Below, piece by piece: positions 3,924-40,704 of a stretch of DNA of 64,000 nt (its first letter is position 1; each line of letters opens with the position of its first letter). The notes under the pieces were generated by a model, which saw nothing but the letters and a program-made list of their open reading frames with translations, was not told the origin of the DNA and searched no databases. Both the position numbers and the translations under genes were made by a program. Origin of the DNA: a virus; IMG/VR virus record IMGVR_UViG_3300037420_000837, positions 1-64,000 of that record; one strand, 5' to 3'.

Positions 3924-4143
3924 AATCGTCCTCCCTGAACCCGACAGTCACGCTACTATCTCTGAAGTTGACCAAGATGGGAAACTGAGCAGGCCGACCG
4001 GGAAACATAACCGCGAGCCCTGTACCAATCACGGGGTCGTTCTGAGGGATGACTTCCTCGTAAGGGACTCCGCTGTTGTCGAGGTAGCGTTTTGCCCGCA
4101 TGCAATGCTCGCACCCTACAATTGAATAAAGCCTCAAAAACAT
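3796..4143 (-). CDS. glutaredoxin/NrdH-like redoxin
   Basis: N-terminal CEHC (CxxC) active-site motif in about 115 aa thioredoxin-fold-sized protein. Confidence 0.5.
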   Translation of the reverse strand: MFLRLYSIVGCEHCMRAKRYLDNSGVPYEEVIPQNDPVIGTGLAVMFPGRPAQFPILVNFRDSSVTVGFREDDYARAVESCGFVRGTGLSHGGAAEQQPSGEASGMVEETAPEDK

Positions 4144-4155
4144 ACCGTCCTCCGT

Positions 4156-5949
4156 TTAGACAGTTGAGCGCTTGTGATTGACCTTGTTTCTGACGCTCTT
4201 AGCTGCAGGAGCCGAGCGCCATTTCATGTACTCAAAACTCCAGCGGTAACACTCGTTGAATTGTTTGCCATTCCAGCCACACCCTTGACCCGGAATGTCC
4301 ATCAACATCATGTTTTGGAGCAGTGTATCCCCGCGTACTTGGTAAGTTGAATCGCCCGTTCTGGCAAACAGCCAAGCGTACATTGGAGCAATTAACAGAT
4401 TCAGAGCCTTCAAGTCTGTTCCAGCACCCGGAGGGGTGTTATAGGAAGCTTGCTTCGAGTTGTAGTACATGGCTCCGGGATAGTTCGGCAGGTTATATGC
4501 GTTGGCCCAGAGATAATCTGCCATGCGCTTGATAACCGCTCCGATTCTGGGGTCATGATATCCGGGAGTACAAGCTGAATCCTCGTAGCAAGTAATCAAC
4601 GCTTGTGCCCACAAGCCCACCATGAATGGTTGAATCCAATCAAAGGGGTCGGGACTGTCTATCCACTGGTCGGCTTTAGCGATATTGACATCTAGAATCT
4701 TTGAAAGCTTGGCTAGGCGTGAGGTGTCTCCTGTGGCTTTTATGTAAAACAGCTCGGCATTAAGTCTATAGGCTCCCTCACGAACTAGGAATGTCGGAGT
4801 AAGACCAGACCGGTCTAGATTGCCGTACACTGCCTGAGAACCTATGGCCAAATTCGAGACCCCAGTCCTAGAGTCCACGCTCCCATTAATCATCCAATCA
4901 TGGTATAAGCCATGTGGAAACACACGCCAGCCCTGCGGAGCACCATTGTTGGTGACAGTGACATAGGGTTGATAAACGTCTCTAGCCTGAGTCGCGCAAG
5001 AGTCCCATTGAGAAGGGTTACCCGTAAGTCCCCTAGTTGCGTCATACTGCTTGATGCGATTGTAGGTATACTGGCCATCATAGTACCAAGTGCCAGTCTC
5101 CACGCCAATACTGCCCGGAGTATTACACTTCGCAGCTCCGTAGGTAACCATTACATCTTCCCAGTTGTATGTGCACGCGGAAGTGCCGTCCATCTGCTTC
5201 GAGGAAGCAGTCATACACGGAATAGGAGGATACGAGGTAGGAGTCCCCAGAGCGAAGGTCGCGGGAGGCTCTACCACAATCGTCCAAGGGATATTCTTAG
5301 TTCCCGGAACTCCCCCAACAGCATCCACCTTAATGTTCATGCTGTAAGTTCCTACGGGGGTGCTTCCAGTAGTCTGCAAGACTACGTTGAAAGTTCCGCA
5401 GTCTCGGAAGTAAAAAATAGTATTCGCGCCATTCACACCTGACCCGCCGCAACCTGTAGGGGTATCCGACAAGGTGGTATTCGGAGGCATGTTCTGGAGG
5501 GTTATATTAAGGTTTTGGTTACCGCTGTCCGTTGTATCTGAGATACGGACGGGGTCAAACGTCAGAACAAGGCTTGACCCTTGATATACGTGCTTAGGTC
5601 CAAAGACATTGAACACGTAATCGTAAGCGCCTGCCGCGATTGCCGCAGGGGCCATCGAGAATGGGTTCGAGAAGACCGCCTTCGTGGTATCCGCAGTTGA
5701 CCTAGAAATCGCTTGAGAGTACCAGCCACTGGGAAATAACCCTGTAACAGTTACAGAGTGGGAGGTAGTCCCCCCTGTGTCTGTGATGGGCGTTGAGTTT
5801 CCAAACCCATCGTCATTGGCATAGGAATAAACTACCCGAGAATCCGCATCACAGTCTGTAGTCCAGTCCACACGAACAGACGTAGACGACAAGGCCGTGG
5901 TAGTCGGCCCTGAAGTGATGTTCGGGGTAGCTGCGCCGCAAGATGCCAT
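4156..5949 (-). CDS. tail-associated protein: N-terminal fibronectin-III-like domain plus putative polysaccharide-degrading (alpha/alpha-toroid-like) domain
   Basis: N-terminus TTTALSSTSVRVDWT is FN3-like; C-terminal W/Y-rich helical region resembles six-hairpin glycosidase/lyase folds; adjacent to fiber-like gene. Confidence 0.4.
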   Translation of the reverse strand: MASCGAATPNITSGPTTTALSSTSVRVDWTTDCDADSRVVYSYANDDGFGNSTPITDTGGTTSHSVTVTGLFPSGWYSQAISRSTADTTKAVFSNPFSMAPAAIAAGAYDYVFNVFGPKHVYQGSSLVLTFDPVRISDTTDSGNQNLNITLQNMPPNTTLSDTPTGCGGSGVNGANTIFYFRDCGTFNVVLQTTGSTPVGTYSMNIKVDAVGGVPGTKNIPWTIVVEPPATFALGTPTSYPPIPCMTASSKQMDGTSACTYNWEDVMVTYGAAKCNTPGSIGVETGTWYYDGQYTYNRIKQYDATRGLTGNPSQWDSCATQARDVYQPYVTVTNNGAPQGWRVFPHGLYHDWMINGSVDSRTGVSNLAIGSQAVYGNLDRSGLTPTFLVREGAYRLNAELFYIKATGDTSRLAKLSKILDVNIAKADQWIDSPDPFDWIQPFMVGLWAQALITCYEDSACTPGYHDPRIGAVIKRMADYLWANAYNLPNYPGAMYYNSKQASYNTPPGAGTDLKALNLLIAPMYAWLFARTGDSTYQVRGDTLLQNMMLMDIPGQGCGWNGKQFNECYRWSFEYMKWRSAPAAKSVRNKVNHKRSTV

Positions 5950-6749: not shown

Positions 6750-7058
6750 TTAGCTCTTGAATGCCGGTGTCAGGCAGTAGTTGATAGAACTCGCCCCGGG
6801 GTTATAGAGGCGGATGCGGTCGTTCCCACGGTTGAGGTAGACCCAGAAGAGAGTGTTTGCAGGAATCCGAGTATAGGAAGCCGAAGAGGCTCCAATCTGA
6901 CCTGCGTAGCCCACGCGAATATGAATATCTCCGGTGGCCGAAAGCAAGGTCACCGAGTCTCCACCGAGCACAATATCAGCCGTGCTTGTGGTAGCAGCTA
7001 AGGAAGCAGTCGTAGGGGCACCTGCATCCAGCGCAAAAACTGCGTCCATTATTGCCAT
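6750..7058 (-). CDS. hypothetical protein
   Basis: ORF in operon-like run, ATG overlaps upstream stop. Confidence 0.4.
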   Translation of the reverse strand: MAIMDAVFALDAGAPTTASLAATTSTADIVLGGDSVTLLSATGDIHIRVGYAGQIGASSASYTRIPANTLFWVYLNRGNDRIRLYNPGASSINYCLTPAFKS

Positions 7059-7406
7059 TTAACTATCCATCTCCTCTTTATCCGGCCAAGCGTCCTTTTC
7101 AATCTCGATTTCCGGATGTTCGTAGAGCTCGAAGCCTAGAGGATTCTTTTCGCCTTTCCGTCGTTCGACCGTCTCAACGAGCTTCCGAACCACCATCTCT
7201 AGTTCCTCCATGAACTGCTTGTGCTGGGAGGGTGGCGTGTTTGCGAGCTGGGTGAAGTAATACGCTTTCCAGCAGTTCGCACAGCCTTTGGTCGGCATGG
7301 CTTTGATGTCCCCAATGTAGAAGTGTTCTTCGCACATCACGGGAACCTTGGAGGGGTCTTCAGCGAGTTGAGCTAACAGCTCACGGTCTTTGTCGGAGTA
7401 GGCCAT
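7059..7406 (-). CDS. hypothetical protein (CxxC...CxxC)
   Basis: 115 aa with Cys pairs, acidic C-terminus. Confidence 0.4.
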   Translation of the reverse strand: MAYSDKDRELLAQLAEDPSKVPVMCEEHFYIGDIKAMPTKGCANCWKAYYFTQLANTPPSQHKQFMEELEMVVRKLVETVERRKGEKNPLGFELYEHPEIEIEKDAWPDKEEMDS

Positions 7407-15333: not shown

Positions 15334-15413
15334 CGTAGGGCAATGTGGTGAAGCAGTCGGATACTTCTCGAAAAAGTAAACCCCCGGCTAGCGTTTGTTC
15401 CCATTGTCCTACG
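15334..15413 (+). ncRNA. structured RNA element, family copy A (candidate Y-RNA/YrlA-like)
   Basis: 12-bp closing stem CGTAGGGCAATG/CATTGTCCTACG; conserved 5' GGTG(A/T)AG..GGATACTTC and 3' CGTTTGTTCC shared with copies at 23034, 40418, 40497, 24953; internal TACTT-CTCGAAA-AAGTA hairpin. Confidence 0.5.
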
Positions 15414-19251: not shown

Positions 19252-20190
19252 GTGGCACAACAACAGCAAGAGAACATCGAGAAGGTACACACGAACAACT
19301 GGCGCAAGCTCGGGGAGATGTATGTGCCCACAGGGGATGTGGTGAAGCATATTCCGGCGGGGGTGTATACCAGTATGCTGCCTTACGGAGTGGGCCCATG
19401 CTTGGTGCCCCAGAAGCCGGTCAAGGATGTGCATCGCAGTATGCCGTCAGGGGTCACGAACAGGATTATTGAAGGCGTGGAGACGTGGCTGAAGCTGCGC
19501 GAGAAGTACACCACGCTGGGGATTCTCTACAAGAGGGGTGTGTTGGTGCATGGCGAGCCGGGGACAGGCAAGACGGTGACCTGCTATCAGATTGCCGATG
19601 CGTGTGTACAGAAGCACGATGCGGTGGTGTTCTCGGGACAGGACATGCACGCACGGTTCACGTTGATGAAGTTGCTCCGCAAGCAGTACCCCACGCGGTT
19701 GTTTGTCAACATCATGGAGGACCTTGAGGTGTTGCGCTATGCCACCTCGGATGACACGTTGTTGAGTGTGCTCGATGGCGCAGACCAAGTGGACGGGGTG
19801 ATTCATCTGGCCACGACCAATTACTTGAGTAAGCTGCCGCCAAGGTACATGAGCCGCCCGAGTCGGTTTGATGAGGTGCACGAGGTTGGAAAGCCGAGTG
19901 CGGATGCTCGTAGGGAGTATCTCAAGAGCTTCGGAGAACTGAGCGATGAGATGTTGGAGACGCTTACGACGGTCTCGGATGGCTTCACGCTCGCGTTCTT
20001 GAAGGAGCTGTTTATCAGTGTGGCTGTGATGAGACGCGGGGTCGATGAGACCGTGCAGAACCTCAAGGTCATGATTGAGAAAGGCAAGAAACAAGCGACT
20101 GACCAAGACTTCAAGAACAAGGCGAGCAAGCTCATGCAAGCCATGGAGAATGCGGTCTATGAGGTAGAGGAGAGCGTCGATGAAGCTTAG
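19252..20190 (+). CDS. AAA+ ATPase
   Basis: Walker A GEPGTGKT, Walker B hydrophobic-DE (VIHLATTN region), sensor region. Confidence 0.7.
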   Translation: MAQQQQENIEKVHTNNWRKLGEMYVPTGDVVKHIPAGVYTSMLPYGVGPCLVPQKPVKDVHRSMPSGVTNRIIEGVETWLKLREKYTTLGILYKRGVLVHGEPGTGKTVTCYQIADACVQKHDAVVFSGQDMHARFTLMKLLRKQYPTRLFVNIMEDLEVLRYATSDDTLLSVLDGADQVDGVIHLATTNYLSKLPPRYMSRPSRFDEVHEVGKPSADARREYLKSFGELSDEMLETLTTVSDGFTLAFLKELFISVAVMRRGVDETVQNLKVMIEKGKKQATDQDFKNKASKLMQAMENAVYEVEESVDEA

Positions 20191-20413
20191 TACGTGGATT
20201 TGGTTTGGCACAAAGATGTTGCTGCTTGTGCTGCTGGCGATGGTCATGCTGAACTATGCGTTCGGACTGATGAATCAGCCAGATACGGTTTTGTTCGCGT
20301 TGGGGCTGGGGTTGTTCATGGCAACCCCGCTCCTCGTGAGCAAGTTGGTTGAGTGGACTCTCAAGAGTCCTATCAAGAAAGAGGAAAGACATGAGAAAAC
20401 AGAAGCTGTTTAA
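20180..20413 (+). CDS. small membrane protein
   Basis: 77 aa, two TM helices; between AAA+ and SPFH genes. Confidence 0.35.
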   Translation: MKLSTWIWFGTKMLLLVLLAMVMLNYAFGLMNQPDTVLFALGLGLFMATPLLVSKLVEWTLKSPIKKEERHEKTEAV

Positions 20414-21320
20414 CTTTCTGGTGATGGTTGTTCTGCTGGTGGTGAGCGTGATGCTTACTGGCTGCGGAGCGACTCGTATCGGCCCCGGGCATGTGGGGTT
20501 GGAGGTCAAGCTGGCAGGCACGCAGCGCGGCGTGCAGGACATCCCGGTGCGTACCGGATGGGTGTTCTACAACCCGTTTGCCACGAGCATCTTGGAGTAT
20601 CCAACCTTCGTGCAGACCGCCAAGTGGACGGGCAGCAAGGAGAGCTCAGACGCGAATGAGGAGATGACCTTCAAGAGCAAGGAAGGCGTCATCATCAAGG
20701 CGGATGTGAGCTTGAGCTACTACATCCAACAGGACAAGGTGCCGCACTTCTACGTGAAGTATCGCTCCGATGACCTGAATCATTTCACGCATGGGATTCT
20801 GAGAAATATCGCCCGAGATGCGTTTAATGAGGTGGCTGCGAACTACGGCGTGGATGACATCAACGGCCCGAAGTTGAGCGACTTCTTACATGAGGTCAAG
20901 ACCAAGATAAACGAGCAAGTCACCAACGAAGGTGTGGTGATTGACCAGTTCGGGTTCTTGGAGACCCCACGGTTGCCTCAGAGTTATCAAGAGGCGATGC
21001 TGAACAAGCAGACCGCGATTCAGACGGCCCAGCAGAAAGAGAACGAGCTGCGGGCCACGCAAGCGGAGGCGGCCAAGCAGATAGCTGCTGCCGAAGGCGA
21101 GGCGAAAGCACGTGTTGCACGTGCGGAGGGTGAGGCGAAGGCGAATACCGTCTTGGCCAATAGCGTTACCGACAGGCTGTTGACCCTGAGGAAGTTGGAC
21201 ATTCAACAGCAAGCTGTTGACCGCTGGAACGGCTCAGTGCCCACGATACAGGGTGGGACAGGTAGTGGTTCCGGAGGGTTGAACATTGTCGTCCCGATGA
21301 ACCTGCAGAAGCAGGACTAA
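20391..21320 (+). CDS. SPFH/band-7 (stomatin/prohibitin/HflKC-like) membrane protein
   Basis: N-terminal TM helix, SPFH core and C-terminal AEAEA coiled-coil repeat (EGEAKARVARAEGEAKA); GAGGAA SD before ATG 20391. Confidence 0.65.
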   Translation: MRKQKLFNFLVMVVLLVVSVMLTGCGATRIGPGHVGLEVKLAGTQRGVQDIPVRTGWVFYNPFATSILEYPTFVQTAKWTGSKESSDANEEMTFKSKEGVIIKADVSLSYYIQQDKVPHFYVKYRSDDLNHFTHGILRNIARDAFNEVAANYGVDDINGPKLSDFLHEVKTKINEQVTNEGVVIDQFGFLETPRLPQSYQEAMLNKQTAIQTAQQKENELRATQAEAAKQIAAAEGEAKARVARAEGEAKANTVLANSVTDRLLTLRKLDIQQQAVDRWNGSVPTIQGGTGSGSGGLNIVVPMNLQKQD

Positions 21321-23011: not shown

Positions 23012-23033
23012 TTCTGTAGTACTTGAAGCCTCT

Positions 23034-23151
23034 GCGAGTGGTGTAGTAGACGGATACTTCTTTGGATAAGAAACCAGCGACGGCCTCCGAAAGGTGGCTG
23101 GCAAGGTAGGGGGTTCAAATCCCCCGCTTCCGTTTGCGCATGTTCCCTCGC
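23034..23151 (+). ncRNA. structured RNA element, family copy B with tRNA T-arm-like module (candidate Y-RNA/YrlA-like)
   Basis: closing GCGAG/CTCGC; conserved 5' TGGTGTAGTAGACGGATACTTC and 3' CGTTTGCGCATGTTCC; perfect T-arm GGGGG-TTCAAAT-CCCCC at 23109-23125. Confidence 0.5.
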
Positions 23152-23163
23152 ATTTGTTTTTTC

Positions 23164-23204: not shown

Positions 23205-24545
23205 GTGATGAAAGTCGTCTCGTACAAAGGCGATATGTCGACGATGGCTCAGGTAGAGCCGGGGATGTCGATTGAGTTGTACCCGAGCAAGGAGCTTGCG
23301 CGGGTGGTGCATGTGGATGCGAGCCGGATGTTTCCGCGAGGGAAGCTGGTGAGCATGGATGTCTGGCAAGGCCAGAAGCTGAACTCGTGGCAGTGGAATG
23401 TCAGGGATTTTCCACCTGAGGCCCCGGTCAAGGTGCTCAACGGGAAGATGGTGGAACTTCTCCTTGAGCGAGTCGGTAAGCAGATGGCTGACCAGAACAG
23501 GGTGACCACAATTATCAATCATCTGGGCATGGGCGTGAGTTTGGGCACGGACCCAGAGGTCTTTGTACGCAAGGGAGATGGGAGTTTATTGCCTGCGTTT
23601 GAGTTTCTGGGGCCGAAGCAGGGGAGTAGTGGGTACGAGTCGCCCTTCTGGGATGGCTTTCAGGCGGAGTTTACTACCTACTCCGGAGGGTGTATCGACG
23701 GGCAGACCACCTCGTGCAGGGCAGGATTGATGGAGGTTCTGCGCAGGGCGCGGAATGTGGACCCCAAGGCCAAGCTGGTGCTGGAGCCGGTGATTGAGGT
23801 TCCTACCGAGACCCTGAAGAAGTACGACAAGAAGTTCACACAGTTTGGATGCAGTCCGAGCATGAATGTGCATGGACTGAGCACGGTGCTGCCGGATGAC
23901 CACACGGAGGTCACCATTCGGCCAGCAGGGTTTCATTTGCACTTCGGTAACCCGATGCTGCAGATTCCCTACCACGCACGCAATGTGGTGAGGGCCTTGG
24001 ATGTGCTTGTGGGGCTGCCGTTCGTGGCCTTGATGGAAGGAATTGATGACCCAAGACGGAGGGCGTTGTATGGACTTCCCGGAGAGTTCCGGATGCCAGC
24101 TCATGGACTTGAGTACCGAACCCTTAGCTCCGCAGGGCTGTGTCATCCTGCCATCTATCAACTTGCTTTTGAGCTGGGAAGAATCGCTTGCCGAGTGGGA
24201 ACGCGGGGAGTGCTTCCCGTGTTGTTCAAGTATGACCCCAAGGAAGTAGCGGAGATAATCACCCGCACGGATGCAGGAACAGCACGCAAGTTCATGGCCC
24301 AGCACAAAGAGGCCTACGAGAAATGCGTGACCTATCGGTTTCAGGGGATGTATCACGGGAGCCTTGAGAGCAACAAATTTTCGTTCTGGCGAGGCATTGA
24401 AGGGGGCGTGGGGGCCTTGGTGAAAGACCCTCATAACCTTGAAAGCAACTGGGACTTGGATAGGTCCCGCCACGACGCTATGAGGTGTTCGAGATGGTCG
24501 CAGTTGGCAGAAAGAGTGGCAAACAGCAAGCAGCCGGTCTCGTAG
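23205..24545 (+). CDS. amidoligase-like protein, paralog 1 (GS-like carboxylate-amine ligase family, putative)
   Basis: shares GTDPEVFV and HLHFG motifs with paralogs at 28920 and 34791 (GADPEFVL/GGHVHLG; GCDPEVVC/GGHVWLD). Confidence 0.45.
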   Translation: MMKVVSYKGDMSTMAQVEPGMSIELYPSKELARVVHVDASRMFPRGKLVSMDVWQGQKLNSWQWNVRDFPPEAPVKVLNGKMVELLLERVGKQMADQNRVTTIINHLGMGVSLGTDPEVFVRKGDGSLLPAFEFLGPKQGSSGYESPFWDGFQAEFTTYSGGCIDGQTTSCRAGLMEVLRRARNVDPKAKLVLEPVIEVPTETLKKYDKKFTQFGCSPSMNVHGLSTVLPDDHTEVTIRPAGFHLHFGNPMLQIPYHARNVVRALDVLVGLPFVALMEGIDDPRRRALYGLPGEFRMPAHGLEYRTLSSAGLCHPAIYQLAFELGRIACRVGTRGVLPVLFKYDPKEVAEIITRTDAGTARKFMAQHKEAYEKCVTYRFQGMYHGSLESNKFSFWRGIEGGVGALVKDPHNLESNWDLDRSRHDAMRCSRWSQLAERVANSKQPVS

Positions 24546-24844: not shown

Positions 24845-24952
24845 CAAGTTTGTAAGGTTTCTCCCTGAGGAGTAACGGAACGGACGCACCCTGCGCAAGC
24901 CAATCGCAGGACTTCGAGGCTCTTAGGGCCTGAGGGTTGGAGTTTCGGCCTT

Positions 24953-25086
24953 CGGAAGACCTCCGGTGGTGTCTGTCAAAGGGACGTTGAGAACGTACAA
25001 AGCTTAGCCCCACTGTGGGCGGGGCATTGGGCTAGGTCTCGGACCTGAGGATACACATCTGTTCGCAGATTGATTGCCTTTCCGAG
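24953..25086 (+). ncRNA. structured RNA element, degenerate family copy E
   Basis: 5' CCGGTGGTGTCTGTC and 3' CGCAGATTGATTGCCTTTCC resemble family consensus; closing CGGAAG/CTTTCCG. Confidence 0.3.
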
Positions 25087-25233
25087 TCTAACTTAGTCTG
25101 AGGGCCCCCCGGATAAACAAGGCTGCTAAGGTGTCCGGTGGAGACGGACTGGAGGCAGGGCGGGATTTGGATACCGTTCTGCGATGCTCCGAAGGGGAGA
25201 AAGTTGTACAGGAAAGGGGCTTCGAGGTCTGGT

Positions 25234-25303
25234 GGGGCTGTAGCTCAGCGTTAGAGCACTCGATAATAATCGAGAGGTCGCCGGTTCAATTCCGGTCAGC
25301 CCA
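25234..25303 (+). tRNA. tRNA-like gene with canonical D- and T-arms but 6-nt anticodon loop (TAATAA) and G1-A72 mismatch; possibly pseudo-tRNA or tRNA-mimic
   Basis: GGGGCTG-TA-GCTCAGCGTTAGAGC-A-CTCGA-TAATAA-TCGAG-AGGTC-GCCGGTTCAATTCCGGT-CAGCCC-A; no encoded CCA. Confidence 0.5.
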
Positions 25304-25308
25304 TTGAG

Positions 25309-28300: not shown

Positions 28301-28944
28301 AGAAGCATACCATTGACGGGATTTTCAAGAAGGGTCGGGGAGGGGTGGCTGCAAACGTGACAGGCACCATGCCAGCCCCGTTTCCGGGCAAATATCCCAC
28401 ACGGGTGTGCTTCAGTATCAAGGTGCACGGCAGACCCGAACGGATTGAGTACATCGGCAAGCCGAATGTGCAGATGATGTTGCGGTTCCATCGGTTTGTC
28501 GAGAGGGCGAGGTTGGATGGGTTTTTCTACTACGAGTTCGACCGCAAGAATATCGTAGCCCGGATGACGATGAGTTCTCGGGCCAGTTGCGAGAGGCTTC
28601 GGAGATACTATCATCCGTGGGCAGGGGTCTATAGCACCTACGAGGACTTCCTCAAGCCTTTCTATCGCAAGAAGGTTGGGGGAGCCACCTGCTACAGTCA
28701 ACACAAAGTCAACAAGATTTCGCAGGTCAATGAGTTCAAGGAGTGGCTGGTGAGCCAAGGCTTGGCTCCGGGGCATATCCTAACCAAGAAGCCTGCTCCG
28801 AAGAAACCGAAGACTATTGAGTGGCGCTACAACTGCGGGAATTGTGGGCATTCCTACCAGAGATTGAGTAAGCCCGAAAGTCTGGTAGTTCGTTGTAGCC
28901 TCTGTGGAGCATTCACAAGTTGGACGGAAAAGAAATCTCTATGA
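28297..28944 (+). CDS. hypothetical protein with C-terminal zinc ribbon
   Basis: CGNCGH...CSLCG at C-terminus. Confidence 0.4.
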   Translation: MKKHTIDGIFKKGRGGVAANVTGTMPAPFPGKYPTRVCFSIKVHGRPERIEYIGKPNVQMMLRFHRFVERARLDGFFYYEFDRKNIVARMTMSSRASCERLRRYYHPWAGVYSTYEDFLKPFYRKKVGGATCYSQHKVNKISQVNEFKEWLVSQGLAPGHILTKKPAPKKPKTIEWRYNCGNCGHSYQRLSKPESLVVRCSLCGAFTSWTEKKSL

Positions 28945-30455
28945 TTTGCACCGAAGAACGGAAAAAGTTTTTCACTGAGGCTGTGGGCAAGGGCTGGCGG
29001 GAGTTGAGCGAGGTTCCGGTGAACTTCCTCCCGGAGGTGCCCGAGCATGTCAAGCTGAAGTGGCTGAAGATTCTAAAGACCAGCAGGGTACCGAAGTATC
29101 CGGTGAACCCTCGACTGGTCAATCATTTTACTCTCGGGGCCGACCCCGAGTTTGTGTTGTATGACCCAACGAGCGGGTCCAGAATGGACGGGAATCGGTT
29201 GGGGCTGCGGACTGGCATGGCCTATGGGGTGGATTCCAATGGTCGTTTGCTGGAAATCAGACCCTGTCCCAGTCGGTTTGCCTTAGAGGTTCTGGCTAGC
29301 ACGCTGGTGACTCTTAGATGGTTCGCTCTGACGGTGCCTCAAGCTCTTGATTTCCAGTGGCGTTCGGGGGCATTTGTCTTGCGAGATGGTCTGGGAGGGC
29401 ACGTGCATCTGGGTAGGAAGACCGCGAACCGTAAGGTTGAAGTGGAAGCTCTGGACAGGGTGTTCCACCTATTGAACGGTTTAGGGGTGTTCCCGCAAGA
29501 TGAGTGCCAAGCACGGAGGGCAGGCGACCAGTTCAATCAGCGGTACGGACTAGACGGAGACATACGACTCCAAAAGCACGGGTATGAGTATCGGACCTTG
29601 CCAAGTTGGCTGGATTCCCCGTGGACGGCATATCTTTGCCTTGTATTGTCCAAGCTGGTCGCCCATGACCCTGCGATTTTTCACAACCTGCACAAGGGTA
29701 CGGTCTCGAAAGGGGGACAGACGAGGATTCTCAATCTGTTCCGAAAGTATGCAGGGCTGGATGACGATGCGGCGATTGCCGCGAGTGTACTGGAAAGACA
29801 TGGGTTGCCGAGCTTTCAGGGTGGCGACTTCAAGACTCGCTGGGGGTTGACCTACGCGAAGGATGCCCTGAAGGATAGGAATATCCAGATTCCGGGCAAC
29901 ATCAAGCCGAGTGCTGAGGAGATGCGGGAGCTGTTTTGTAGCTTGATGAACAATACTCCCTTGCACGCCACCATGCCTAAGGCTTACTGGCCGACACATC
30001 TGCCGAGTGGGTATCAGACGGTGTTGAGCTACACGGATACCACGAGGGTTGCGGGGCTGGGGGAAGTGCTAGCTGAGATGGTGGTCGAGTCGAAGCACGC
30101 CTTTCAATTCACGCACTCTGAGAGCATCACGGATTATTTGAGGGTGAGCTTGGATGTGGTCAAGAGCTTGCCGAAGAACTGGCGACAGCTTTGCGCGAAG
30201 GCGAGTGGCTTGCCGGAAGAGAGGTTCCGGGCCTATGACCAAGGCAAGAACGCGATTTTTATCGGGCGAGACGCGAGAACAAGCACGCACTTGAGAGCCG
30301 TGCGGAGGGCCTTGTTGAGTGAGGCTTTCCCGATTTGGAAGTTTGACGAGGTGAAGTCTGAGAGTTATTCGTGGTGGGTGGAGAAGAATACCCGCGAAAA
30401 GAAAGAGAAGCCTCGGAAGTTTGCCTCGAAGGTAATCTACGAGCGAGGCAAGTAG
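28920..30455 (+). CDS. amidoligase-like protein, paralog 2
   Basis: LGADPEFVLYD, LLEIRPCP, LGGHVHLGRK motifs shared with 23205 and 34791. Confidence 0.5.
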   Translation: MDGKEISMICTEERKKFFTEAVGKGWRELSEVPVNFLPEVPEHVKLKWLKILKTSRVPKYPVNPRLVNHFTLGADPEFVLYDPTSGSRMDGNRLGLRTGMAYGVDSNGRLLEIRPCPSRFALEVLASTLVTLRWFALTVPQALDFQWRSGAFVLRDGLGGHVHLGRKTANRKVEVEALDRVFHLLNGLGVFPQDECQARRAGDQFNQRYGLDGDIRLQKHGYEYRTLPSWLDSPWTAYLCLVLSKLVAHDPAIFHNLHKGTVSKGGQTRILNLFRKYAGLDDDAAIAASVLERHGLPSFQGGDFKTRWGLTYAKDALKDRNIQIPGNIKPSAEEMRELFCSLMNNTPLHATMPKAYWPTHLPSGYQTVLSYTDTTRVAGLGEVLAEMVVESKHAFQFTHSESITDYLRVSLDVVKSLPKNWRQLCAKASGLPEERFRAYDQGKNAIFIGRDARTSTHLRAVRRALLSEAFPIWKFDEVKSESYSWWVEKNTREKKEKPRKFASKVIYERGK

Positions 30456-30465
30456 GAGGACGAGA

Positions 30466-31497
30466 ATGTGTGGAATCGGTGGGTTTTACCGTTATGGTGA
30501 CACGCCAATAGACATTGACCAAATCAAGGCGCTGTTGTGTCAGTTGGAGCGCCGAGGCAATCACGCAACCGGGATTGCGTTGCAGGACGAGAAGGGGGAA
30601 GTGTTTGTGTGTAAGGCCCCGACTCCTGCGTGGAACTTTGCCGCAGGCAAGGAGTTTGAGGTCTTCATGACGAAGTACTTCAACGAGCGCACGAGGATTG
30701 CGCTGCTCCATACGCGGGCTGCGACTATCGGGAACCCGAATAAGAACGAAAACAATCACCCGATGTTTGCCGGGAAGGCCGCGATTGTCCACAACGGGAG
30801 TATCAACAACCACTCCTACTGGTTCAGCCAGAACAAAGACTGGGAGCGCAAGGCCGAGACAGACAGCGATGTCATTCGGGCGGTGGTGGATGAGCTAGGG
30901 ATTACTCCGGAGGCCATCAGGTATTTGAGTCGGTTCTCGGGAAGTGCGGCCATCATGGCGGTCAGTCCGGAGTATCCGGGGAAGCTGTTGGTAGGCCGGT
31001 CAGGCAAGCCTCTCACGATGGGCTGGAACGAGAAGGAGCAGATGCTCGCGTTCGCCTCTGAGAAGGAGATGCTCTACCACGCGACCAAGCCGCTCAAGGT
31101 GGCGCTGGGGTTTGTCTTTGCTGGCAATCGGAATGATTACATGTACTTCACCATCCCGGCAGACACGATGTACATCGTGGGCGAGAAGGGTAAGGAGTTC
31201 CACGATAACCTGCGGATTGCCAGCTATACCACAGGGGAGATGGTCTATCGGTGCAATGAGACTTACCACGAGACCAAGAAGCGCTTTGACCGGGAGACAC
31301 CTCCGCCCAAGCGAGAAGTAGTGACGGTCGATGAAGGGCCGTTGTATGTGAACTCCAAGCTGGACGTGGTGAGATGTCGGAATACCAAGTGCAACAACCT
31401 CATGGAGCTGGACGAGAAGCTCAAGAAGGAGCCACTCTGGGAGTTGGCTTGTGACAAGTGTGGAACCTACCTGATGGAGGAGCCGAAGAAGGCTTAG
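30466..31497 (+). CDS. class-II (Ntn) glutamine amidotransferase domain protein
   Basis: MCGIGGF N-terminal nucleophile Cys2; AGGAGGA SD. Confidence 0.65.
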   Translation: MCGIGGFYRYGDTPIDIDQIKALLCQLERRGNHATGIALQDEKGEVFVCKAPTPAWNFAAGKEFEVFMTKYFNERTRIALLHTRAATIGNPNKNENNHPMFAGKAAIVHNGSINNHSYWFSQNKDWERKAETDSDVIRAVVDELGITPEAIRYLSRFSGSAAIMAVSPEYPGKLLVGRSGKPLTMGWNEKEQMLAFASEKEMLYHATKPLKVALGFVFAGNRNDYMYFTIPADTMYIVGEKGKEFHDNLRIASYTTGEMVYRCNETYHETKKRFDRETPPPKREVVTVDEGPLYVNSKLDVVRCRNTKCNNLMELDEKLKKEPLWELACDKCGTYLMEEPKKA

Positions 31498-31761: not shown

Positions 31762-32214
31762 ATGAAAGAGCTTGTTGAGAAGTACAAGGAACAAATCACG
31801 GCCATTCTCGGGCACAACCGATGGCGGTTGGGAAATGTAGACTACAAAGTCAACTACAGCGACAAGCTTGACCTCGGGAAGTATGCCTTGTGGGTTCGGG
31901 TGAACTCAGTTGACCCGACAGAGACCAAGGTCGCAAGCTTTGAGCTGCACCCGATGATTAACTGCTGCGGGATTTGTGTGTCTTCGAGAGCTGAAGTGCA
32001 CAAGGATTTTCAAGGTAACGGTCTCGGGACGCTTCTCAACTCTTTTCGGGTGGATGTTGCACGCTATCTCGGGTACGGAGTCCTGCTTTGCACGGACGTG
32101 TCAACCAACGAACCTCAGCGCAAGATTCTTAAAGCCAACGGGTGGAAGGACGTGTATCAGTTCTTAAACCCGCGAACGAAGAACAGGGTATTCATCTCGG
32201 TAATAAATCTATGA
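31762..32214 (+). CDS. GNAT-fold N-acetyltransferase-like protein
   Basis: VHKDFQGNGLGTLL acetyl-CoA-binding-like motif. Confidence 0.5.
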   Translation: MKELVEKYKEQITAILGHNRWRLGNVDYKVNYSDKLDLGKYALWVRVNSVDPTETKVASFELHPMINCCGICVSSRAEVHKDFQGNGLGTLLNSFRVDVARYLGYGVLLCTDVSTNEPQRKILKANGWKDVYQFLNPRTKNRVFISVINL

Positions 32215-33044
32215 TTCGACTGGTAGTCGCAAAAGGCAGCAGACCCACGGGAAACACTCTCTCAAACCTGCTGAGAACCGAACACAACCTCCAGCTCGGA
32301 GAAGCTGGGCGAGGAGTCGTGAGTTATGGAGTTCCATACGGAGGAAATCTCCCAGCCCTCAACGCAAACGCAGGACGACTGGATAAGTTGGAACAAGGCC
32401 TGCGCTTGGCATCTGCTGGGGTTAGCGTTGTTCCACATCTCGATTCTGCTGCTGCTCTCCGCCACAATGGGGTTCTCTTGGCTCGCAAGCGCAATCATGT
32501 TGGCGGTCGGGACATTATGCTGGTACTTGAGCCTGAGGACATCCCGCACCGACTCCGAGCAGGAGCCCAGTTCTTTACTCCTTATATCCGAAGCCAAGCC
32601 GAGTATCGAGTCTGGACCTACCGAGGACAACATCTGGGAACTTATCAGAAGGTCCTAGCCCATCCGGAGAGATACAAGAAAGTGGGGCGGAACTATGACA
32701 ACGGCTTTGCGTTCCAGCTTGTCCGAGAGGCGCAGATACCACGAGCGGCGGTGGAACTGGCGAGTCAAGCCGTTGAGGCTTTGGCTCTCGATTTCGGCGC
32801 GGTCGATATCTTACACGGACGGGACGGAAGGTTCTACGTGTTGGAAGTTAACACTGCACCGGGGGTCGAAGGGGAAGGCAGGCAGGTCATTCAAGCGCTT
32901 GCTCGTAAAATCGCTCGCTGGGAAGAGTTAGGGTATCCGGCTAGGAATGGAAGCCCGGAGGCTGCGGCTAAGAAGGCTGCCAAGGAGAAGAGGCCCCTAA
33001 AGGACTTAGCAGGAGAGCGGAGGACACAACTCCGGAGGTGGTGA
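32211..33044 (+). CDS. ATP-grasp ligase (RimK-like)
   Basis: GAVDILHGRDGRFYVLEVNTAPG ATP-grasp C-terminal signature; ATG overlaps upstream TGA. Confidence 0.65.
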   Translation: MIRLVVAKGSRPTGNTLSNLLRTEHNLQLGEAGRGVVSYGVPYGGNLPALNANAGRLDKLEQGLRLASAGVSVVPHLDSAAALRHNGVLLARKRNHVGGRDIMLVLEPEDIPHRLRAGAQFFTPYIRSQAEYRVWTYRGQHLGTYQKVLAHPERYKKVGRNYDNGFAFQLVREAQIPRAAVELASQAVEALALDFGAVDILHGRDGRFYVLEVNTAPGVEGEGRQVIQALARKIARWEELGYPARNGSPEAAAKKAAKEKRPLKDLAGERRTQLRRW

Positions 33045-33686: not shown

Positions 33687-34271
33687 ATGGAAACCCCGGA
33701 GGCATATATCACACAGGTGGTACGGAGGATAACCCCTCAAGGTCCCATTTGGAAGTGTAAGGTTCACGGGGATATTCCGGAAGCTTACATGCTCAGGGGT
33801 GGAGTGGTGGTGCCGTATTGTGGACAGTGCCTGCTCCAGACCCCTGAGGTGAGCTTTGGCAAGGTGGTGTTAAAGAAACGCTGGAGACCGTTTGGAGGTA
33901 GCTCCCGAGGCTACATGTTTCGGGACGGCAAATACCACTGCAGACAGTGTTTCGAGGCCTTTGAGTACATCACCGCTTACGACAACCATCTCGAAGGATG
34001 TGTCGGCAGAGGAATCGGGAGCTTTCGAGTCAACGACAGACGCAGGGTTTCAGCTGACCCAAGCACAGCAAGCCGAATCACCTCGCAAGAAGGTGACCAC
34101 TACTGCACCCTCAGAAACTGCTGGAAGGTCTCCTGCCTGTTCCCGTGTGCAAGCTGCAACCAACACTTTTGCATTGCTCACATGGCTCATTATGCAGTTG
34201 ACACTCCGCTCACAAATCTCTGCGAAGTCTGCGCCAGTGTTGAAGAGTACGCAACCAAGGTCACCCCATGA
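33687..34271 (+). CDS. Cys-rich zinc-binding protein (possible anti-sigma/regulator)
   Basis: multiple CxxC; stop overlaps sigma-factor start. Confidence 0.4.
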   Translation: METPEAYITQVVRRITPQGPIWKCKVHGDIPEAYMLRGGVVVPYCGQCLLQTPEVSFGKVVLKKRWRPFGGSSRGYMFRDGKYHCRQCFEAFEYITAYDNHLEGCVGRGIGSFRVNDRRRVSADPSTASRITSQEGDHYCTLRNCWKVSCLFPCASCNQHFCIAHMAHYAVDTPLTNLCEVCASVEEYATKVTP

Positions 34272-34837
34272 GTGAACAGAATAAGGCGTTTGAAACATGG
34301 AAGCAAGCCAAGGGAACTGAAACCGAGAAAGCAGCCGAGGAGAGGCTGATTAAAGCCCTGAGGAGATATGCCACAAAAATCTGTTGGAACATTCTCAAAG
34401 AAGCCAATCAAGACGTTGTCTCAGCTTCGGTCTTTCAAGCCCTTCAATTCGCTGATGGATTCCGAGGAGACGGAAAATTCTCTACGTGGTTCTATTCTGT
34501 CGTTAAACGGAATTGTCTCTCTGCCATTAGGAAGCGTAAGCGCAGGGCTGAGATTGGAATTGATGACCTGTCTGGGGCGCAGGTCAAACAGCTACCTGTA
34601 CGAGAGGTATCAGACGACGCCATCGCCCTCCGAGAGGTTACCGGAAGGCTGGCTGCTCACGAGCGTGAGTTTCTTGAGTTGAAGGCACACGGGGCGAGCG
34701 ACGAGGAGATTGCTCGGGCGTTGAACATCAAAGAAGGGACTGTGAGGGTGCGGTGGAGTAGGCTTCGGAAGAAGTTGCGAGGGGCGTTGAATGGCGAGGA
34801 AATCAAACTTTCTGAACGCGTTTCTGGTGGGATGTGA
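34268..34837 (+). CDS. sigma-70 family (ECF-like) sigma factor
   Basis: region 2 (FSTWFYSVVKRNCLSAIRKRKR) and region 4 HTH (EEIARALNIKEGTVRVRWSRLRKKLR). Confidence 0.7.
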   Translation: MSEQNKAFETWKQAKGTETEKAAEERLIKALRRYATKICWNILKEANQDVVSASVFQALQFADGFRGDGKFSTWFYSVVKRNCLSAIRKRKRRAEIGIDDLSGAQVKQLPVREVSDDAIALREVTGRLAAHEREFLELKAHGASDEEIARALNIKEGTVRVRWSRLRKKLRGALNGEEIKLSERVSGGM

Positions 34838-35558
34838 CCCAGAGGTCGTGTGTGTGGATGCAGCGGGGAATCAGGTGCATGTGGACAGGACTATCACCAA
34901 GGATGGGCAGATAGGCTGGGACCACGGCGGAAGGGTGATGGAGTTTAGACCGACCCCGCACAAGGGTACCTACACCTTGGTCAAGGATATCAAGGAGCTG
35001 ATTACAGGAGCTCCGGCGGGCATCCGCAAGTATCGTTGGTTGTCGGGAGCTTATGTCAAGTTCCCCAACGAAGCAGGAGAGAGTCTCGGCGGCCATGTCT
35101 GGTTGGACTTGAACCCGAACTCGGCTATCCAGTCCACCAGAGTCAAGGCGTTAGACCGACTGACCGAGAGCCTTGAGAGACTGGATATCCTGCCTCGGCA
35201 GGAGTGCATTGTCAGGCGGAGAGGAAAGTACGGGAAGTTTGCAGACGTGCGCACGGTGCAGGGGGACAGGCCGAGGTTTGAGTATCGCACGATGGCGAGT
35301 TGGATGTATAACCCCGCGACTGCGTTCCTGTGCCTGACGGCTGCCAAGATGGCTGCGTATGACCCCGAAGGGGCAGCTAAAGCTCTCAAGCCTGAAGAGG
35401 CGAGCTGGAAGGGTTTGACGGAGTGGTTGGAGGGTTATGCCGAAGACTGCAACGTAGCGAGGTTGAGCGAGAAAGTATTTCCAAAAGGTCTCAAGAAAGT
35501 TCAGTACCACCCGGATGTGGATGTCAAAGAGGCGTGGGCTGGGAAACTGGGGTTCTAG
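34791..35558 (+). CDS. amidoligase-like protein, paralog 3 (short)
   Basis: VGCDPEVVCVD, VMEFRPTP, LGGHVWLDLN motifs. Confidence 0.5.
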   Translation: MARKSNFLNAFLVGCDPEVVCVDAAGNQVHVDRTITKDGQIGWDHGGRVMEFRPTPHKGTYTLVKDIKELITGAPAGIRKYRWLSGAYVKFPNEAGESLGGHVWLDLNPNSAIQSTRVKALDRLTESLERLDILPRQECIVRRRGKYGKFADVRTVQGDRPRFEYRTMASWMYNPATAFLCLTAAKMAAYDPEGAAKALKPEEASWKGLTEWLEGYAEDCNVARLSEKVFPKGLKKVQYHPDVDVKEAWAGKLGF

Positions 35559-38459: not shown

Positions 38460-38487
38460 CCCCCTCTTCGGAGGGGGATTTTTATTT
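38460..38487 (+). terminator. rho-independent terminator or 5'-UTR stabilising hairpin
   Basis: CCCCCTC-TTCG-GAGGGGG then ATTTTTATTT; sits between motif copy and rsr SD. Confidence 0.55.
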
Positions 38488-38499
38488 GGAGGAGAAACT

Positions 38500-39894
38500 A
38501 TGGCGAGTATAAACAAACAAGTGCCTAGCAATCTGCCTAAGACGTACGAAGGTACGCCTGCGCAGCGGCTGGACACTGAGCAGACCTTGCAGCGGTTGGT
38601 CTTAGCCAACATGCTGTGGGAGGACCAGTTTTACATCGACGGCAAGGCGACGGCTGGGATGATTTCGGAGTTGGTTCCGAAGGTCAGCCCGAAGTTCGTG
38701 GCGGCTCTGGCGGTCTATGCCCGGGAGAAGATGAAGCTCCGGCATGTGCCCCTGTTGCTTGTGCGAGAGATGGCCCGGGCCTCGACGGAGCATAAGCTCC
38801 TCGTGGCTGACACCCTCTCGAAGGTTGTCCAACGTCCGGATGAGATGACTGAGTTTCTGGCCATCTACTGGAAGGAAAAGAAACAGCCTCTCAGTGCGCA
38901 GGTCAAGAAGGGGCTGGCGCAGGCTTTCATGAAGTTTGACGAGTTCCAGCTGAGTCGGTATGACAAGGACGGAGCGGTCAAGCTGCGGGACGTGATGTTC
39001 CTTACCCACCCCAAGCCCAAGGGCAAGTTCGAGACGGTCTACAAGAAGATTGCGGAGCGGAAGACCCAGACCGTCGACACGTGGGAGACCAACCTCAGCG
39101 CTGGCAAGGACAAGAAAGAATCCTTCGAGCGCCTGATGAGCGAGGGCAAGATGGGCGCTCTGGCCGTGCTGCGCAACCTGCGGAACATGCAGGAGGCGGG
39201 CGTGGAGCTGGACAAGATGCGCGAGGCCATCAAGACCATGAAGGTCGAGAGGGTCCTCCCGTTCCGGTTCATTGCGGCCTCACGATATGCTCCGAAGCTG
39301 GAGCCTGAGCTTGAAGAGGCGATGTTTAAGTGCCTCGGAGATGCGCCGAAGTTGAAGGGGCGCACGGCTCTGGTGATTGATACCAGCCCGAGCATGTGGA
39401 TGGCGAACATCTCCATGAAGTCTGAGATGAATCGGGCAGACGCTGCGGCGGCTCTGGCCATGCTCCTGCGGGAGATTTGCGAGAGTTGCAACATCTACAC
39501 GTTCAACCACGAGGCCAAGGCGATTCCGGCACGGCGAGGGTTTGCGCTGCGGGACGCCATCTTTCAGACCAAAGGGGATTACTCCTGCGGCGGTCTGGGC
39601 GTGCACATGGCCAACAAGGACGGCTACGACCGCATTGTCGTGCTGACGGACGGGCAGTGGCATTACTCGAACTATGAGGCCAACTCCGTAGGTACACGGC
39701 ACTCGATGGAGAACTCGGGACACGCGGGCGTCTGTCCGAAGCCCTTGACTCCACTGGCCTACATGCTCAACGTAGCGGCTTACAGGAACGGCGTAGGTTC
39801 CGGAAGCTGGGTCACCATCGACGGATGGTCTGAAGCGGTTGTGGATTACATCCGTGCGTGCGAGGAGGGCTTCGATGTTGAGGCACGTGGATGA
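38500..39894 (+). CDS. rsr: Ro60/Rsr-like protein (TROVE module plus C-terminal vWA domain)
   Basis: N-terminal TYEGTPAQRLDTEQTLQRLVLANMLWEDQFYI (TROVE-like start), helical repeat region, C-terminal vWA with MIDAS LVIDTSPSMWM and DRIVVLTDGQ; GGAGG SD. Confidence 0.6.
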   Translation: MASINKQVPSNLPKTYEGTPAQRLDTEQTLQRLVLANMLWEDQFYIDGKATAGMISELVPKVSPKFVAALAVYAREKMKLRHVPLLLVREMARASTEHKLLVADTLSKVVQRPDEMTEFLAIYWKEKKQPLSAQVKKGLAQAFMKFDEFQLSRYDKDGAVKLRDVMFLTHPKPKGKFETVYKKIAERKTQTVDTWETNLSAGKDKKESFERLMSEGKMGALAVLRNLRNMQEAGVELDKMREAIKTMKVERVLPFRFIAASRYAPKLEPELEEAMFKCLGDAPKLKGRTALVIDTSPSMWMANISMKSEMNRADAAAALAMLLREICESCNIYTFNHEAKAIPARRGFALRDAIFQTKGDYSCGGLGVHMANKDGYDRIVVLTDGQWHYSNYEANSVGTRHSMENSGHAGVCPKPLTPLAYMLNVAAYRNGVGSGSWVTIDGWSEAVVDYIRACEEGFDVEARG

Positions 39895-40411
39895 GATTGC
39901 TCCCGAGGCAATCAAGTACATGAACTCCCGCATGGGGACCTTCGAGTTCCGGGCCAAGACGCGGTACATGAAGGCGTACTGTGCGCTGGTAAGTATCGGC
40001 CTGAAGAGTGAGCATGTGCTCTTGGACATCGGCGCAGGCAGTTGTCAGTTCGACCACTTCATGCGTACGAGGTTCCGTTGGATGGGGAGATACCTTCCGG
40101 TGGATGCAACGCTGGACGGTACGAACCTGAACAACTGGAAGCCCAAGGCGAAAGTGGACTTCGTGGTTTGTCTGGAGACCTTGGAGCACTTGAAGGTTCC
40201 CGACAGAATGCTCAGGCACATCCGCAGCGCGGCGAAGTACGGGGCAGTAGTGACCGTGCCGAATCCGGACGTAGTTGATGTGTTGAGGTGTGACCCTACA
40301 CACGTGAGTGTAGTGGACCCGGGGATGCTGTTACGTCACGGCTTTGAGGTCACGCCGGTCAATTGCTTCGGCAAGAAGGATGACACCTTGCTTGGAGTGC
40401 TGAGCAGATAG
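39875..40411 (+). CDS. SAM-dependent methyltransferase (class I)
   Basis: motif I VLLDIGAGSCQ, later VDFVVCLETLEHL; start overlaps rsr stop. Confidence 0.55.
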   Translation: MLRHVDEIAPEAIKYMNSRMGTFEFRAKTRYMKAYCALVSIGLKSEHVLLDIGAGSCQFDHFMRTRFRWMGRYLPVDATLDGTNLNNWKPKAKVDFVVCLETLEHLKVPDRMLRHIRSAAKYGAVVTVPNPDVVDVLRCDPTHVSVVDPGMLLRHGFEVTPVNCFGKKDDTLLGVLSR

Positions 40412-40417
40412 GTTTTC

Positions 40418-40487
40418 GCAGGGATGGTGTAGAGAACGGTTACTTCTGACTCTTAAACCCGTACCGTTTTCGTTTGTTCCTCCCTGC
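40418..40487 (+). ncRNA. structured RNA element, family copy C1 (candidate Y-RNA-like), 7 nt after methyltransferase stop
   Basis: closing GCAGGGA/TCCCTGC; conserved 5' TGGTGTAGAGAACGGTTACTTC and 3' CGTTTGTTCC; inner AACGGT/ACCGTT stem. Confidence 0.5.
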
Positions 40488-40496
40488 AAAAGATTC

Positions 40497-40625: not shown

Positions 40626-40704
40626 GAAACACTGTAACAAAAACCCACCCGAGGGCGTCTTATAGACGCCCGCTCCGGGGAGTCCTTTCCCGGAATGGAG
40701 CATA

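Follow-up and report, generated by a model that had tools for sequence, protein, structure and literature searches.

Ro60 and its Y RNAs form particles that serve as a conserved RNA-surveillance machine. To our knowledge, their role in phage infection is almost unexplored, with one structural study, on Thermus phage phiLo. In that phage, Ro60 binds phage-encoded Y-like RNAs and assembles with host PNPase (PMC12135203). Bacterial and phage YrlA RNAs have been defined by adjacency to rsr (at most 4 kb away and on the same strand), a 5' GNCGAAN0-1G motif, YUAY, and a tRNA-like domain arranged V-T-AS-D (Chen et al. 2014, PMC4201824); the phages listed in the same work include CcrColossus. The bacteria characterised to date all carry two or more Y RNAs, including a tRNA-like one, and the YrlB of Mycobacterium smegmatis has a T arm; YrlB is reported to be conserved within Salmonella only. 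Conservation of both strands of the Ro60-binding helix is reported for Deinococcus and metazoan Y RNAs and not for those of Salmonella or Mycobacterium (Chen et al. 2014, PMC4201824). Here we describe four structured elements in a 64,000-nucleotide stretch of an uncultured phage (IMG/VR record IMGVR_UViG_3300037420_000837, positions 1 to 64,000; hereafter the window), and we conclude that they are very probably Y RNAs that partner the phage's own Ro60. We base this identification on the presence of a Ro60/TROVE gene in the window with two of the elements close by on the same strand, on the recurrence of this linkage in viral and bacterial loci, on a model built from other phages that finds exactly these four copies, and on strong covariation together with the match of one element to the tRNA-like core of YrlA.

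Four elements and a Ro60 gene in the window

A first-pass annotation of the window, made from its letters, had described a family of five homologous intergenic elements dispersed over 25 kb. Four of these proved real, essentially where they had been placed: c1 at 15334-15413, c2 at 23032-23153, c4 at 40418-40487, and c5 at 40495-40627, all on the + strand and 70-133 nt in length. The remaining one, "copy 3" at 24953-25086, was not a member of the family by sequence, fold, or model, and is treated in the last section. The shared 5' block (GGTGTAGWAGACRGWTACTTC) occurred four times on the + strand, at 15347, 23040, 40426, and 40503, when at most 3 mismatches were allowed, and in none of 100 shuffled sequences (0.00 expected). 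A shared 3' block had also been proposed; as a short pattern taken alone it was not significant, with 4 matches (one of them spurious) against 1.9 expected. The likeness among c1, c2, c4, and c5 extended beyond the short blocks, with z values of 3.3-11.9 in pairwise alignment, and each lay in a gap between + strand open reading frames (ORFs), as had been noted.

The four copies folded into one common architecture, with z values of -3.26, -3.44, and -3.62 for c1, c2, and c4 (range -3.3 to -3.6). Each was closed, as the first-pass annotation had claimed, by a terminal stem, here of 6-12 bp, whose sequence was unlike in each copy while its pairing was kept in all four: CGUAGGGCAAUG with CAUUGUCCUACG in c1 (12 bp), UGCGAG with CUCGCA in c2, GCAGGGA with UCCCUGC in c4, and UCGGGAG with CUCCCGA in c5. 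Inside this stem, all four copies had a bulged U and then GG:CC, followed by an asymmetric internal loop (UGGUGNAG / CGNUUGUUCC) in which UGUA or UGAA faces G-N-UUGUU. A second stem of 9 bp came next and showed compensatory substitutions from copy to copy (UAGACAGU/ACUGUUUG in c5, UAGACGGA/UCCGUUUG in c2, and AGAACGGU/ACCGUUUU in c4); in c1, whose core motif reads GUGGUGAAG...GAUACUUC...CGUUUGUUCC, it was bulged. The sequence (U/A)UACUUC was invariant in the four copies, and after it came a module that differed among them.

In c1 and c4, the short-type elements, the module was a small hairpin with no tRNA-like part; in c1 this hairpin was the whole module. The module of c2 was partly tRNA-like and consisted of a small hairpin, a long hairpin, and, at 23109-23125, the perfect T arm GGGGG-UUCAAAU-CCCCC that had been recognised as an insert at the outset; c2 had no acceptor-like arm or D arm. 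Only c5 had the full tRNA-like module, with a V arm at 40520-40536 (loop CUUAUAA) and then, at 40542-40593, a T arm (40542-40558), a 7-bp acceptor-like stem-loop (40559-40576), UA, and a D arm (40579-40593), which is the order of YrlA. All four elements therefore have the general form of a Y RNA, namely ~60-150 nt with paired ends, a conserved bulged helix, and a variable module.

The presumed partner of these RNAs is encoded on the + strand at 38500-39894, in an ORF on which the first-pass annotation did not remark. The 464-aa product is a Ro60/Rsr orthologue with TROVE and vWA domains (Pfam TROVE, E 4e-16; vWA_Ro60 weak, E 4.9e-4), and it matched PHROG 850, "RNA-binding protein," with E 9e-42. 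Among solved structures, phiLo Ro60, from a Thermus phage (9KOP/9L5Y), came nearest; the match ran from residue 13 to 457 (E 5.8e-21), and the DxSxS MIDAS motif was aligned in it. The c4 and c5 elements lie 0.5-0.6 kb downstream of this gene on the same strand; c2 and c1 are also on its strand, 15.5 and 23.2 kb upstream.

Relatives beside TROVE genes in phages and bacteria

We scanned IMG/VR with a degenerate form of the 5' motif, GTGGYGYAG-N6-GWTACTTC, and found it in at least 119 stretches, many with 2-4 copies. A TROVE homologue was present in 98 of the 121 sequences examined (97 of 120 loci, plus the window). In these 98, every motif lay on the TROVE strand, less than 1 kb from the gene and mostly upstream of it, with the window as the sole exception. 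The 25-kb spread, which had been singled out as unusual, is thus unusual indeed when set against these motif-found elements. The multiplicity of the elements, which had also been called unusual for phages, is not unusual in phages that have Ro60: arrays of 2-7 adjoin TROVE genes in ~100 viral loci and in bacterial genomes. In bacteria (one genome per species, 596 Gb), the motif was found at 120 loci, a number of which many are expected by chance; TROVE was present at 56 of the 120, and there the motifs were on the same strand in 122 of 122 cases and upstream in 120. The hosts of these TROVE-linked motifs include Acidobacteriaceae, Caulobacter, Asticcacaulis, and Verrucomicrobia. The core was also carried by two loci (L014 and L120) of CcrPW, a phage related to CcrColossus. 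The exact 5' block of the c2/c5 type had 0 matches in the viral and metagenome collections.

The relatives fell into a short group of 63-82 nt, a long group of ~125-145 nt with V, T, acceptor-like, and D arms, and an intermediate group distinguished by an additional hairpin, a lone T arm, or both. We aligned 60 short elements from other loci, chosen with a pairing rule, using MAFFT (alignment A2). In this alignment 88% of stem cells were paired versus 63% after shuffling, 15 of 18 pairs had compensatory changes, and the covariation score was 0.686 versus 0.207 for shuffled alignments and 0.13-0.18 when the partner strand was slid. As pairing had been used in the selection of A2, we repeated the stem test with 3' partners picked by sequence motif alone. 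Stem 1 still paired at 5.24 of 7 positions versus 3.23 when partners were permuted, a value that never rose above 3.51 in 500 permutations; for stem 2 the figures were 7.31 of 9 and 5.47. Independently of any supplied structure, RNAalifold recovered stem 1, GG:CC, and stem 2 from 37 long-type elements including c5, and in the module it recovered the T and D arms and an acceptor-like stem of 6 bp; of the 31 pairs, 25 were compensatory.

These data bear on the proposal, already made in the first-pass annotation, that the copies are paralogous structured RNAs and not mere DNA signals. Were the blocks DNA-level or cis signals that yield no stable RNA, such as promoters, terminators, processing sites, or leaders (for example, c2 for the ligase-like ORF that follows it), one would expect them where we found them, in intergenic gaps on the coding strand. 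The c2 element, moreover, has a U-rich run at its 3' end (UUUGUUUUUU) and lies 55 nt upstream of a COOH-NH2 ligase-like ORF (23205/23208-24545), and this site upstream of the ligase homologue is kept in a distant contig, L317, described below. Signals of this sort, however, do not account for compensatory changes that preserve RNA helices while the sequence shifts, and in more than 60 relatives the covariation of both stems was strong. Leaders do not typically form tandem arrays, which here reach 7 elements, the element is absent from 96 other ligase-homologue loci, no sigma-70-like promoter was found at any of the copies, and a terminator scan showed no enrichment. We consider it extremely unlikely that the blocks act at the DNA level or in cis only.

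From A2, which holds no window sequence, we built a covariance model (R1) and scanned the window with it unfiltered. The four copies were the only significant matches: c4 at 40418-40487 (67.3 bits, E 2.8e-15), c2 at 23032-23153 (55.7 bits, E 2.9e-12), c5 at 40495-40627 (54.7 bits, E 5.4e-12), and c1, the lowest of the four, at 15339-15408 (49.3 bits, E 1.3e-10); the next-best match reached 11.5 bits (E ~1). The model made 240 matches across 98 viral loci, where an array could hold as many as 7, and 46 matches across 14 bacterial loci. In 672 kb of unrelated phage loci it made a single match, which was itself a Y RNA. In the complete 43-kb genome of Xanthomonas phage 10KY502B, R1 found five tandem elements right upstream of TROVE and none elsewhere.

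Two of the arrays adjoin tRNA annotations. The five-element array of 10KY502B (L121, OQ622092.1) spans 20163-20752, and a GenBank "tRNA-Thr" at 20624-20691 overlaps the 5' half of one element; this tRNA is probably a mis-annotated Y RNA element. On a contig of a Steroidobacteraceae metagenome-assembled genome (L178, 4959-7243), 11 tRNA genes are followed at once by three Y RNA elements (6901-7243), an arrangement suggestive of a tRNA island, from a phage or prophage, that has fused with an array of Y RNAs.

Comparison with described Y RNAs and tRNA

The window elements resemble the YrlA RNAs (RF02553) of Salmonella, M. smegmatis, and many other bacteria and phages. Shared features are a same-strand Ro60 neighbour, a terminal stem with a permuted tRNA mimic, several paralogues per genome, and a conserved YUAY after the stem; in c5, both the V-T-AS-D order and the YUAY after the stem fit the published definition (Chen et al. 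2014, PMC4201824). The acceptor-like stem of c5, stacked on a 5-bp T stem, is 7 bp long, as it is in the RNase P-cleaved YrlA of M. smegmatis, where such a stem is cited as the determinant of cleavage. The Rfam YrlA model matched c5 locally at 40535-40596 (35.5 bits, E 2.4e-6), where the tRNA-like core alone was aligned, and it had no match in c1, c2, or c4. The family differs from YrlA in an extra outer module, made up of the closing stem, the bulged U, GG:CC, and UGGYGNAG/CGYUUGUUCC conserved on both strands, in the GGUGNAG of the window copies versus GNCGAA, and in the fact that two window copies are unlinked from rsr. Some family members do carry GGCGAAG, an exact instance of the GNCGAAN0-1G Rsr motif, within a general form GGYGNAG.

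Several of these results weigh against the identification of the four elements as Y RNAs. The c5 score of 35.5 bits falls short of the RF02553 gathering score of 69, so that a default scan passes over it, and none of the 28 related loci that we tested, from phages and bacteria, brought the model up to this score either. Where GNCGAAN0-1G would be, c2, c4, and c5 read GGUGUAG and c1 reads GGUGAAG, at 1-2 mismatches from it. When alignment to RF02553 was forced, the Rfam terminal stem fell on the second stem of the family and the Rfam motif on a different part of the element, so that homology of the Ro60 site is ambiguous; by this alignment, the closing stem and the UGGYGNAG/CGYUUGUUCC module lie outside the Rfam model. 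That the 5' block does not vary among relatives is in part circular, as it was used to retrieve them, although the 3' block and the helices are independent of it. Finally, the 4-kb same-strand distance that holds for bacterial YrlAs also holds for c4 and c5 and is broken by c2 (15.5 kb) and c1 (23 kb).

Other Y RNAs resemble the family in other respects. YrlB of Salmonella and M. smegmatis and Yrn2 of Deinococcus radiodurans are second, shorter Ro60-bound RNAs that accompany a tRNA-like one, and the YrlB of M. smegmatis has a lone T arm, as does c2, beside which c1 and c4 stand as forms without a tRNA module. Compared by description, YrlB and Yrn2 are long hairpins with pyrimidine-rich loops, whereas the phage short forms share the core of the long form. 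Metazoan Y RNAs (RF00019) and D. radiodurans Yrn1 have paired ends and a bulged, conserved helix that binds Ro60, with both strands conserved, and by inspection, without a statistical test, UGGUCCGA/UUGACC and the Yrn1 sequence ..UGGGCGGAAG.. resemble UGGYGNAG/YUUGUUCC. The module of metazoan Y RNAs is a pyrimidine-rich loop where that of the present family is tRNA-like, and the genes of the family are of bacterial type and lie in operons; the Rfam Y_RNA model (RF00019) gave no match at E<=10.

Thermus phage phiLo, whose Ro60 is the nearest solved relative, has phage-encoded Y-like RNAs (Yrl1 and Yrl2) and a Ro60 that binds them and assembles with host PNPase (PMC12135203). The published Yrl1 and Yrl2 were picked upstream of the Ro60 gene by their CGAA motif (PMC12135203). 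In phiLo (L142, MH673673.1, reverse complement), R1 instead matched two sites that overlap the annotated coding sequence phiLo_25 immediately downstream of Ro60, 3986-4051 (25.7 bits, E 1.6e-5) and 4177-4256 (10.7 bits). Yrl1 and Yrl2 as published may lack homology to the window family, and the phiLo RNAs of this family may be different ones.

The arms of c5 and c2 raise the question of whether these elements are tRNA-derived relics, or free tRNA-like decoys that work without Ro60 as baits for, say, host anticodon nucleases or tRNA enzymes, with an incidental link to TROVE. Like tRNA, c5 has a T arm, a D arm, and a 7+5 bp acceptor/T stack, and annotation pipelines can call such elements tRNA, as the "tRNA-Thr" of 10KY502B illustrates. 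The 5' half of long-type elements scored 20-29 bits with the Rfam tRNA model, and ~40% of long-type V arms had a 5-bp stem and a 7-nt CU-NNN-AA loop resembling an anticodon loop. The triplets include UGU, GUU, GCU, UUU, and CUU, and the c5 loop, CUUAUAA, has UAU; such V arms occur in long-type elements of L012, L016, L029, L030, L037, L048, L050, L073, L103, L104, and others. In c5, however, the order of the arms is permuted and the acceptor stem is closed by a loop, with no free CCA end. None of the four elements was called by ARAGORN or by Rfam tRNA at its gathering score (c5 reached 20.5 bits against a threshold of 29), and the sole tRNA call in the window was at 25234-25304. In addition, c1 and c4 have no tRNA part and share the covarying core, which is not itself tRNA-like; it is the core stems that covary, while a D-arm-like pairing does not; and the linkage to TROVE is near absolute across ~150 independent loci. 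Relics or decoys that act without Ro60 are thus very unlikely. The anticodon-loop-like V arms explain the tRNA mis-annotation and leave room for a decoy role, but a decoy role for the module would be compatible with binding to Ro60 and is no alternative to it. The V arms of many family members, which mimic anticodon stem-loops, would suit decoys against tRNA-targeting defences.

In place of the "regulatory or decoy" class first suggested, we therefore assign the family to the Y RNA partners of the Ro60/TROVE protein encoded at 38500-39894. The conserved covarying structure, the tight linkage to TROVE, and the tRNA-like module were computed here, and what follows on Ro60 binding, processing, and effector recruitment draws on the literature on other Y RNAs. 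Each Y RNA would probably be cut from a + strand transcript, which is the most likely origin; the copies have no sigma-70 promoter or enriched terminator signal. The paired 5' and 3' ends would form a rod made of the closing stem, the bulged U, GG:CC, a conserved distorted helix in which UGGYGNAG faces CGYUUGUUCC, and the 9-bp stem. If the Y RNAs of metazoa, Deinococcus, and Salmonella are a guide, the outer face of the Ro60 ring could dock on this rod. The distal modules, which are unlike among the paralogues (a permuted tRNA mimic in c5, a T arm in c2, a small hairpin in c1 and c4), would give the Ro60 ribonucleoprotein different partners or specificities. They may, for instance, tether PNPase or another 3'-5' exoribonuclease of the host, in the manner of the RYPER complex, and the module may also be recognised by tRNA enzymes. 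We follow here the established model for Deinococcus and Salmonella, by which Y RNAs both control access to the Ro60 cavity as a gate and tether PNPase, and the assembly demonstrated for phiLo. With its complete tRNA mimic, its T-arm form, and its pair of short forms, the window set fits the known bacterial pattern.

Dispersed copies, neighbouring features, and meaning of the family

The positions of c1 and c2 break the usual adjacency to Ro60, and we asked whether c4 and c5 could be the working Y RNAs while c1 and c2 are displaced duplicates that are decaying or neutral. The lowest score and the bulged second stem of c1 are in keeping with decay, and we found no relatives of the ORFs flanking c1 with which to compare its position. 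Both copies, on the other hand, retain full-length closing stems and all conserved core bases, and their 49-56 bits are in the range of array members elsewhere. Unlinked copies also occur in two other genomes: the one element detected in RsoM2USA is 5 kb from the Ro60 gene, and a good 118-nt element without TROVE (L038) shares a 192.7-kb contig with L035, which has TROVE. A further contig, L015, has two elements and no TROVE within its 11 kb.

For c2, we examined 98 loci that encode homologues of the ligase-like ORF downstream of it. Y RNAs were present at one, L317, a 5.7-kb metagenome contig that is syntenic with the window at 23.5-29.6 kb and whose proteins are 35-54% identical to those of the window. 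A long-type Y RNA (343-480) and a short-type one (496-568) lie directly upstream of the ligase homologue on this contig, which has no TROVE. The unlinked c2 site is thus maintained across distant phages, which disfavours c2 as a decaying duplicate, and for c1 and c2 together we judge displacement without function to be unlikely; the reading of all four elements as Y RNAs is retained. A general association of Y RNAs with these ligases was rejected, since the single locus among 98 is the syntenic one. Y RNA genes may have been recruited in this lineage to a fixed site at the head of the ligase cassette, away from Ro60.

Between the Ro60 gene and c4/c5, on the + strand at 39875-40411, lies an ORF for a 178-aa S-adenosylmethionine-dependent methyltransferase (Pfam Methyltransf_23, E 1.3e-8). 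We rejected it as a recurrent partner, for it was absent from the other TROVE/Y RNA loci and had no relative in the PDB. A strong terminator-like hairpin at 38460-38477 (CCCCCUCUUCGGAGGGGG, then AUUUUUAUUU) is located 22 nt before the Ro60 start codon, and because it precedes Ro60 it suggests that the Ro60 gene, the methyltransferase gene, and c4/c5 are a separate transcription unit.

The wider window is that of a phage, with a portal, a terminase, a DNA polymerase, a primase, a sigma factor, three phiEco32-like COOH-NH2 ligases, and a 2571-aa ORF. No close cultured relative was found; megablast gave no match, and DNA polymerase identity was at most 26%. Searches of the ORFs flanking the copies against Pfam, PHROGs, and NCBIfam were uninformative except for the COOH-NH2 ligase and an exonuclease. 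One + strand block holds an unusual peptide-ligase cassette (ORFs 23205-24545, 28920-30455, 34791-35558, 30466-31497, 32142-33044, and 34268-34837) comprising the three paralogous phiEco32-like COOH-NH2 ligases, a glutamine amidotransferase, a RimK-like protein (S6 glutaminyl transferase), and a sigma-70-family factor. The giant 2571-aa ORF is on the - strand at 52292-60007, and its sole match was PHROG 9854, an entry without a known function.

We return to 24953-25086, the "copy 3" of the first-pass annotation. It was rejected as a Y RNA, degenerate or otherwise: it has no 5' block at <=3 mismatches, its fold z was +0.5, its pairwise z against the four copies was -0.9 to +1.3, and unfiltered R1 found no match there even at E<=10. 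It is instead contained in a different conserved non-coding element of ~390 nt on the + strand (24850-25204), within a 389-nt gap (24845-25233) that has on one side a small ORF coming after the ligase and on the other a tRNA at 25234-25304. This gap aligned at the nucleotide level with the matching gap of L317 (2249-2640). Using a profile of these two gaps, we found homologues downstream of ligase homologues in ~10 contigs, always on the + strand: beside L317:2249-2640, these were L140:7463-7884 (L140, L286, and L376 being the same), L321:6410-6817, L280:2454-2875, L270:2361-2770, L123:7598-8005, L137:8914-9219, L329:4780-4938, L139:7381-7604, and L276. Their conserved blocks include CUGUGGGCG, paired with GGGC-UCCC; a single-stranded GUUAAACAAGG; GGGAUUUGCAUAC; and GCGAUG.

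From five of these sequences, RNAalifold derived a structure that is closed by pairing of the two ends and that has six helices and 76 pairs. Compensatory changes were seen in 38 of the 76 pairs versus 19 +/- 3 in shuffles, and covariation was 0.471 versus 0.265 shuffled and 0.13-0.22 slid, figures that are inflated, since one alignment served both to derive the structure and to test it. Helices H4-H6 (24918-25110) form well in the window, and the register of the closing rod there is uncertain. Rfam had no family match for the element in the window or in four homologous loci, and its linkage to tRNA was not general among the homologous loci. We tentatively propose, at somewhat less than even confidence, that copy 3 is part of an uncatalogued structured RNA unrelated to the Y RNAs, a real new family of ~360-400 nt with a long closing rod and covarying internal helices, conserved downstream of phiEco32-like COOH-NH2 ligases in a group of uncultured phages. 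Although it is known from few sequences, this element is perhaps the most novel feature that the region contains. Of 56 loci retrieved from viral contigs with a gapped pattern for the element, only one, a duplicate of L140, was a true homologue. Dozens of unrelated viral contigs (L345-L400) have the pattern itself, TAAACANG-N(30-48)-GGATTTGNATAC, with a span that is always 61 nt, and they are not homologues of the element. The neighbouring tRNA at 25234-25304 (+ strand) scored 50.7 bits with Rfam, and ARAGORN, which called it "tRNA-???," could give it no anticodon; it has a 6-nt anticodon loop, UAAUAA, and a G1-A72 mismatch, and could be a non-canonical tRNA, suppressor-like or a decoy.

The four Y RNAs belong to a known kind of RNA, and the results do not overturn current understanding. 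What is new here is the set in an uncultured phage, drawn from a subfamily that the Rfam YrlA threshold misses. This subfamily is large and recognisable, spans phages and bacteria (Acidobacteriota, Caulobacterales, and others) with more than 280 model matches in the sampled loci, and is at times annotated as tRNA. Its members also indicate that Y RNA genes can occupy conserved sites remote from Ro60, which means that the usual "within 4 kb" search rule undercounts them. With modules graded from a full tRNA mimic through a T arm to none, the set of four paralogues is a natural experiment on module function.

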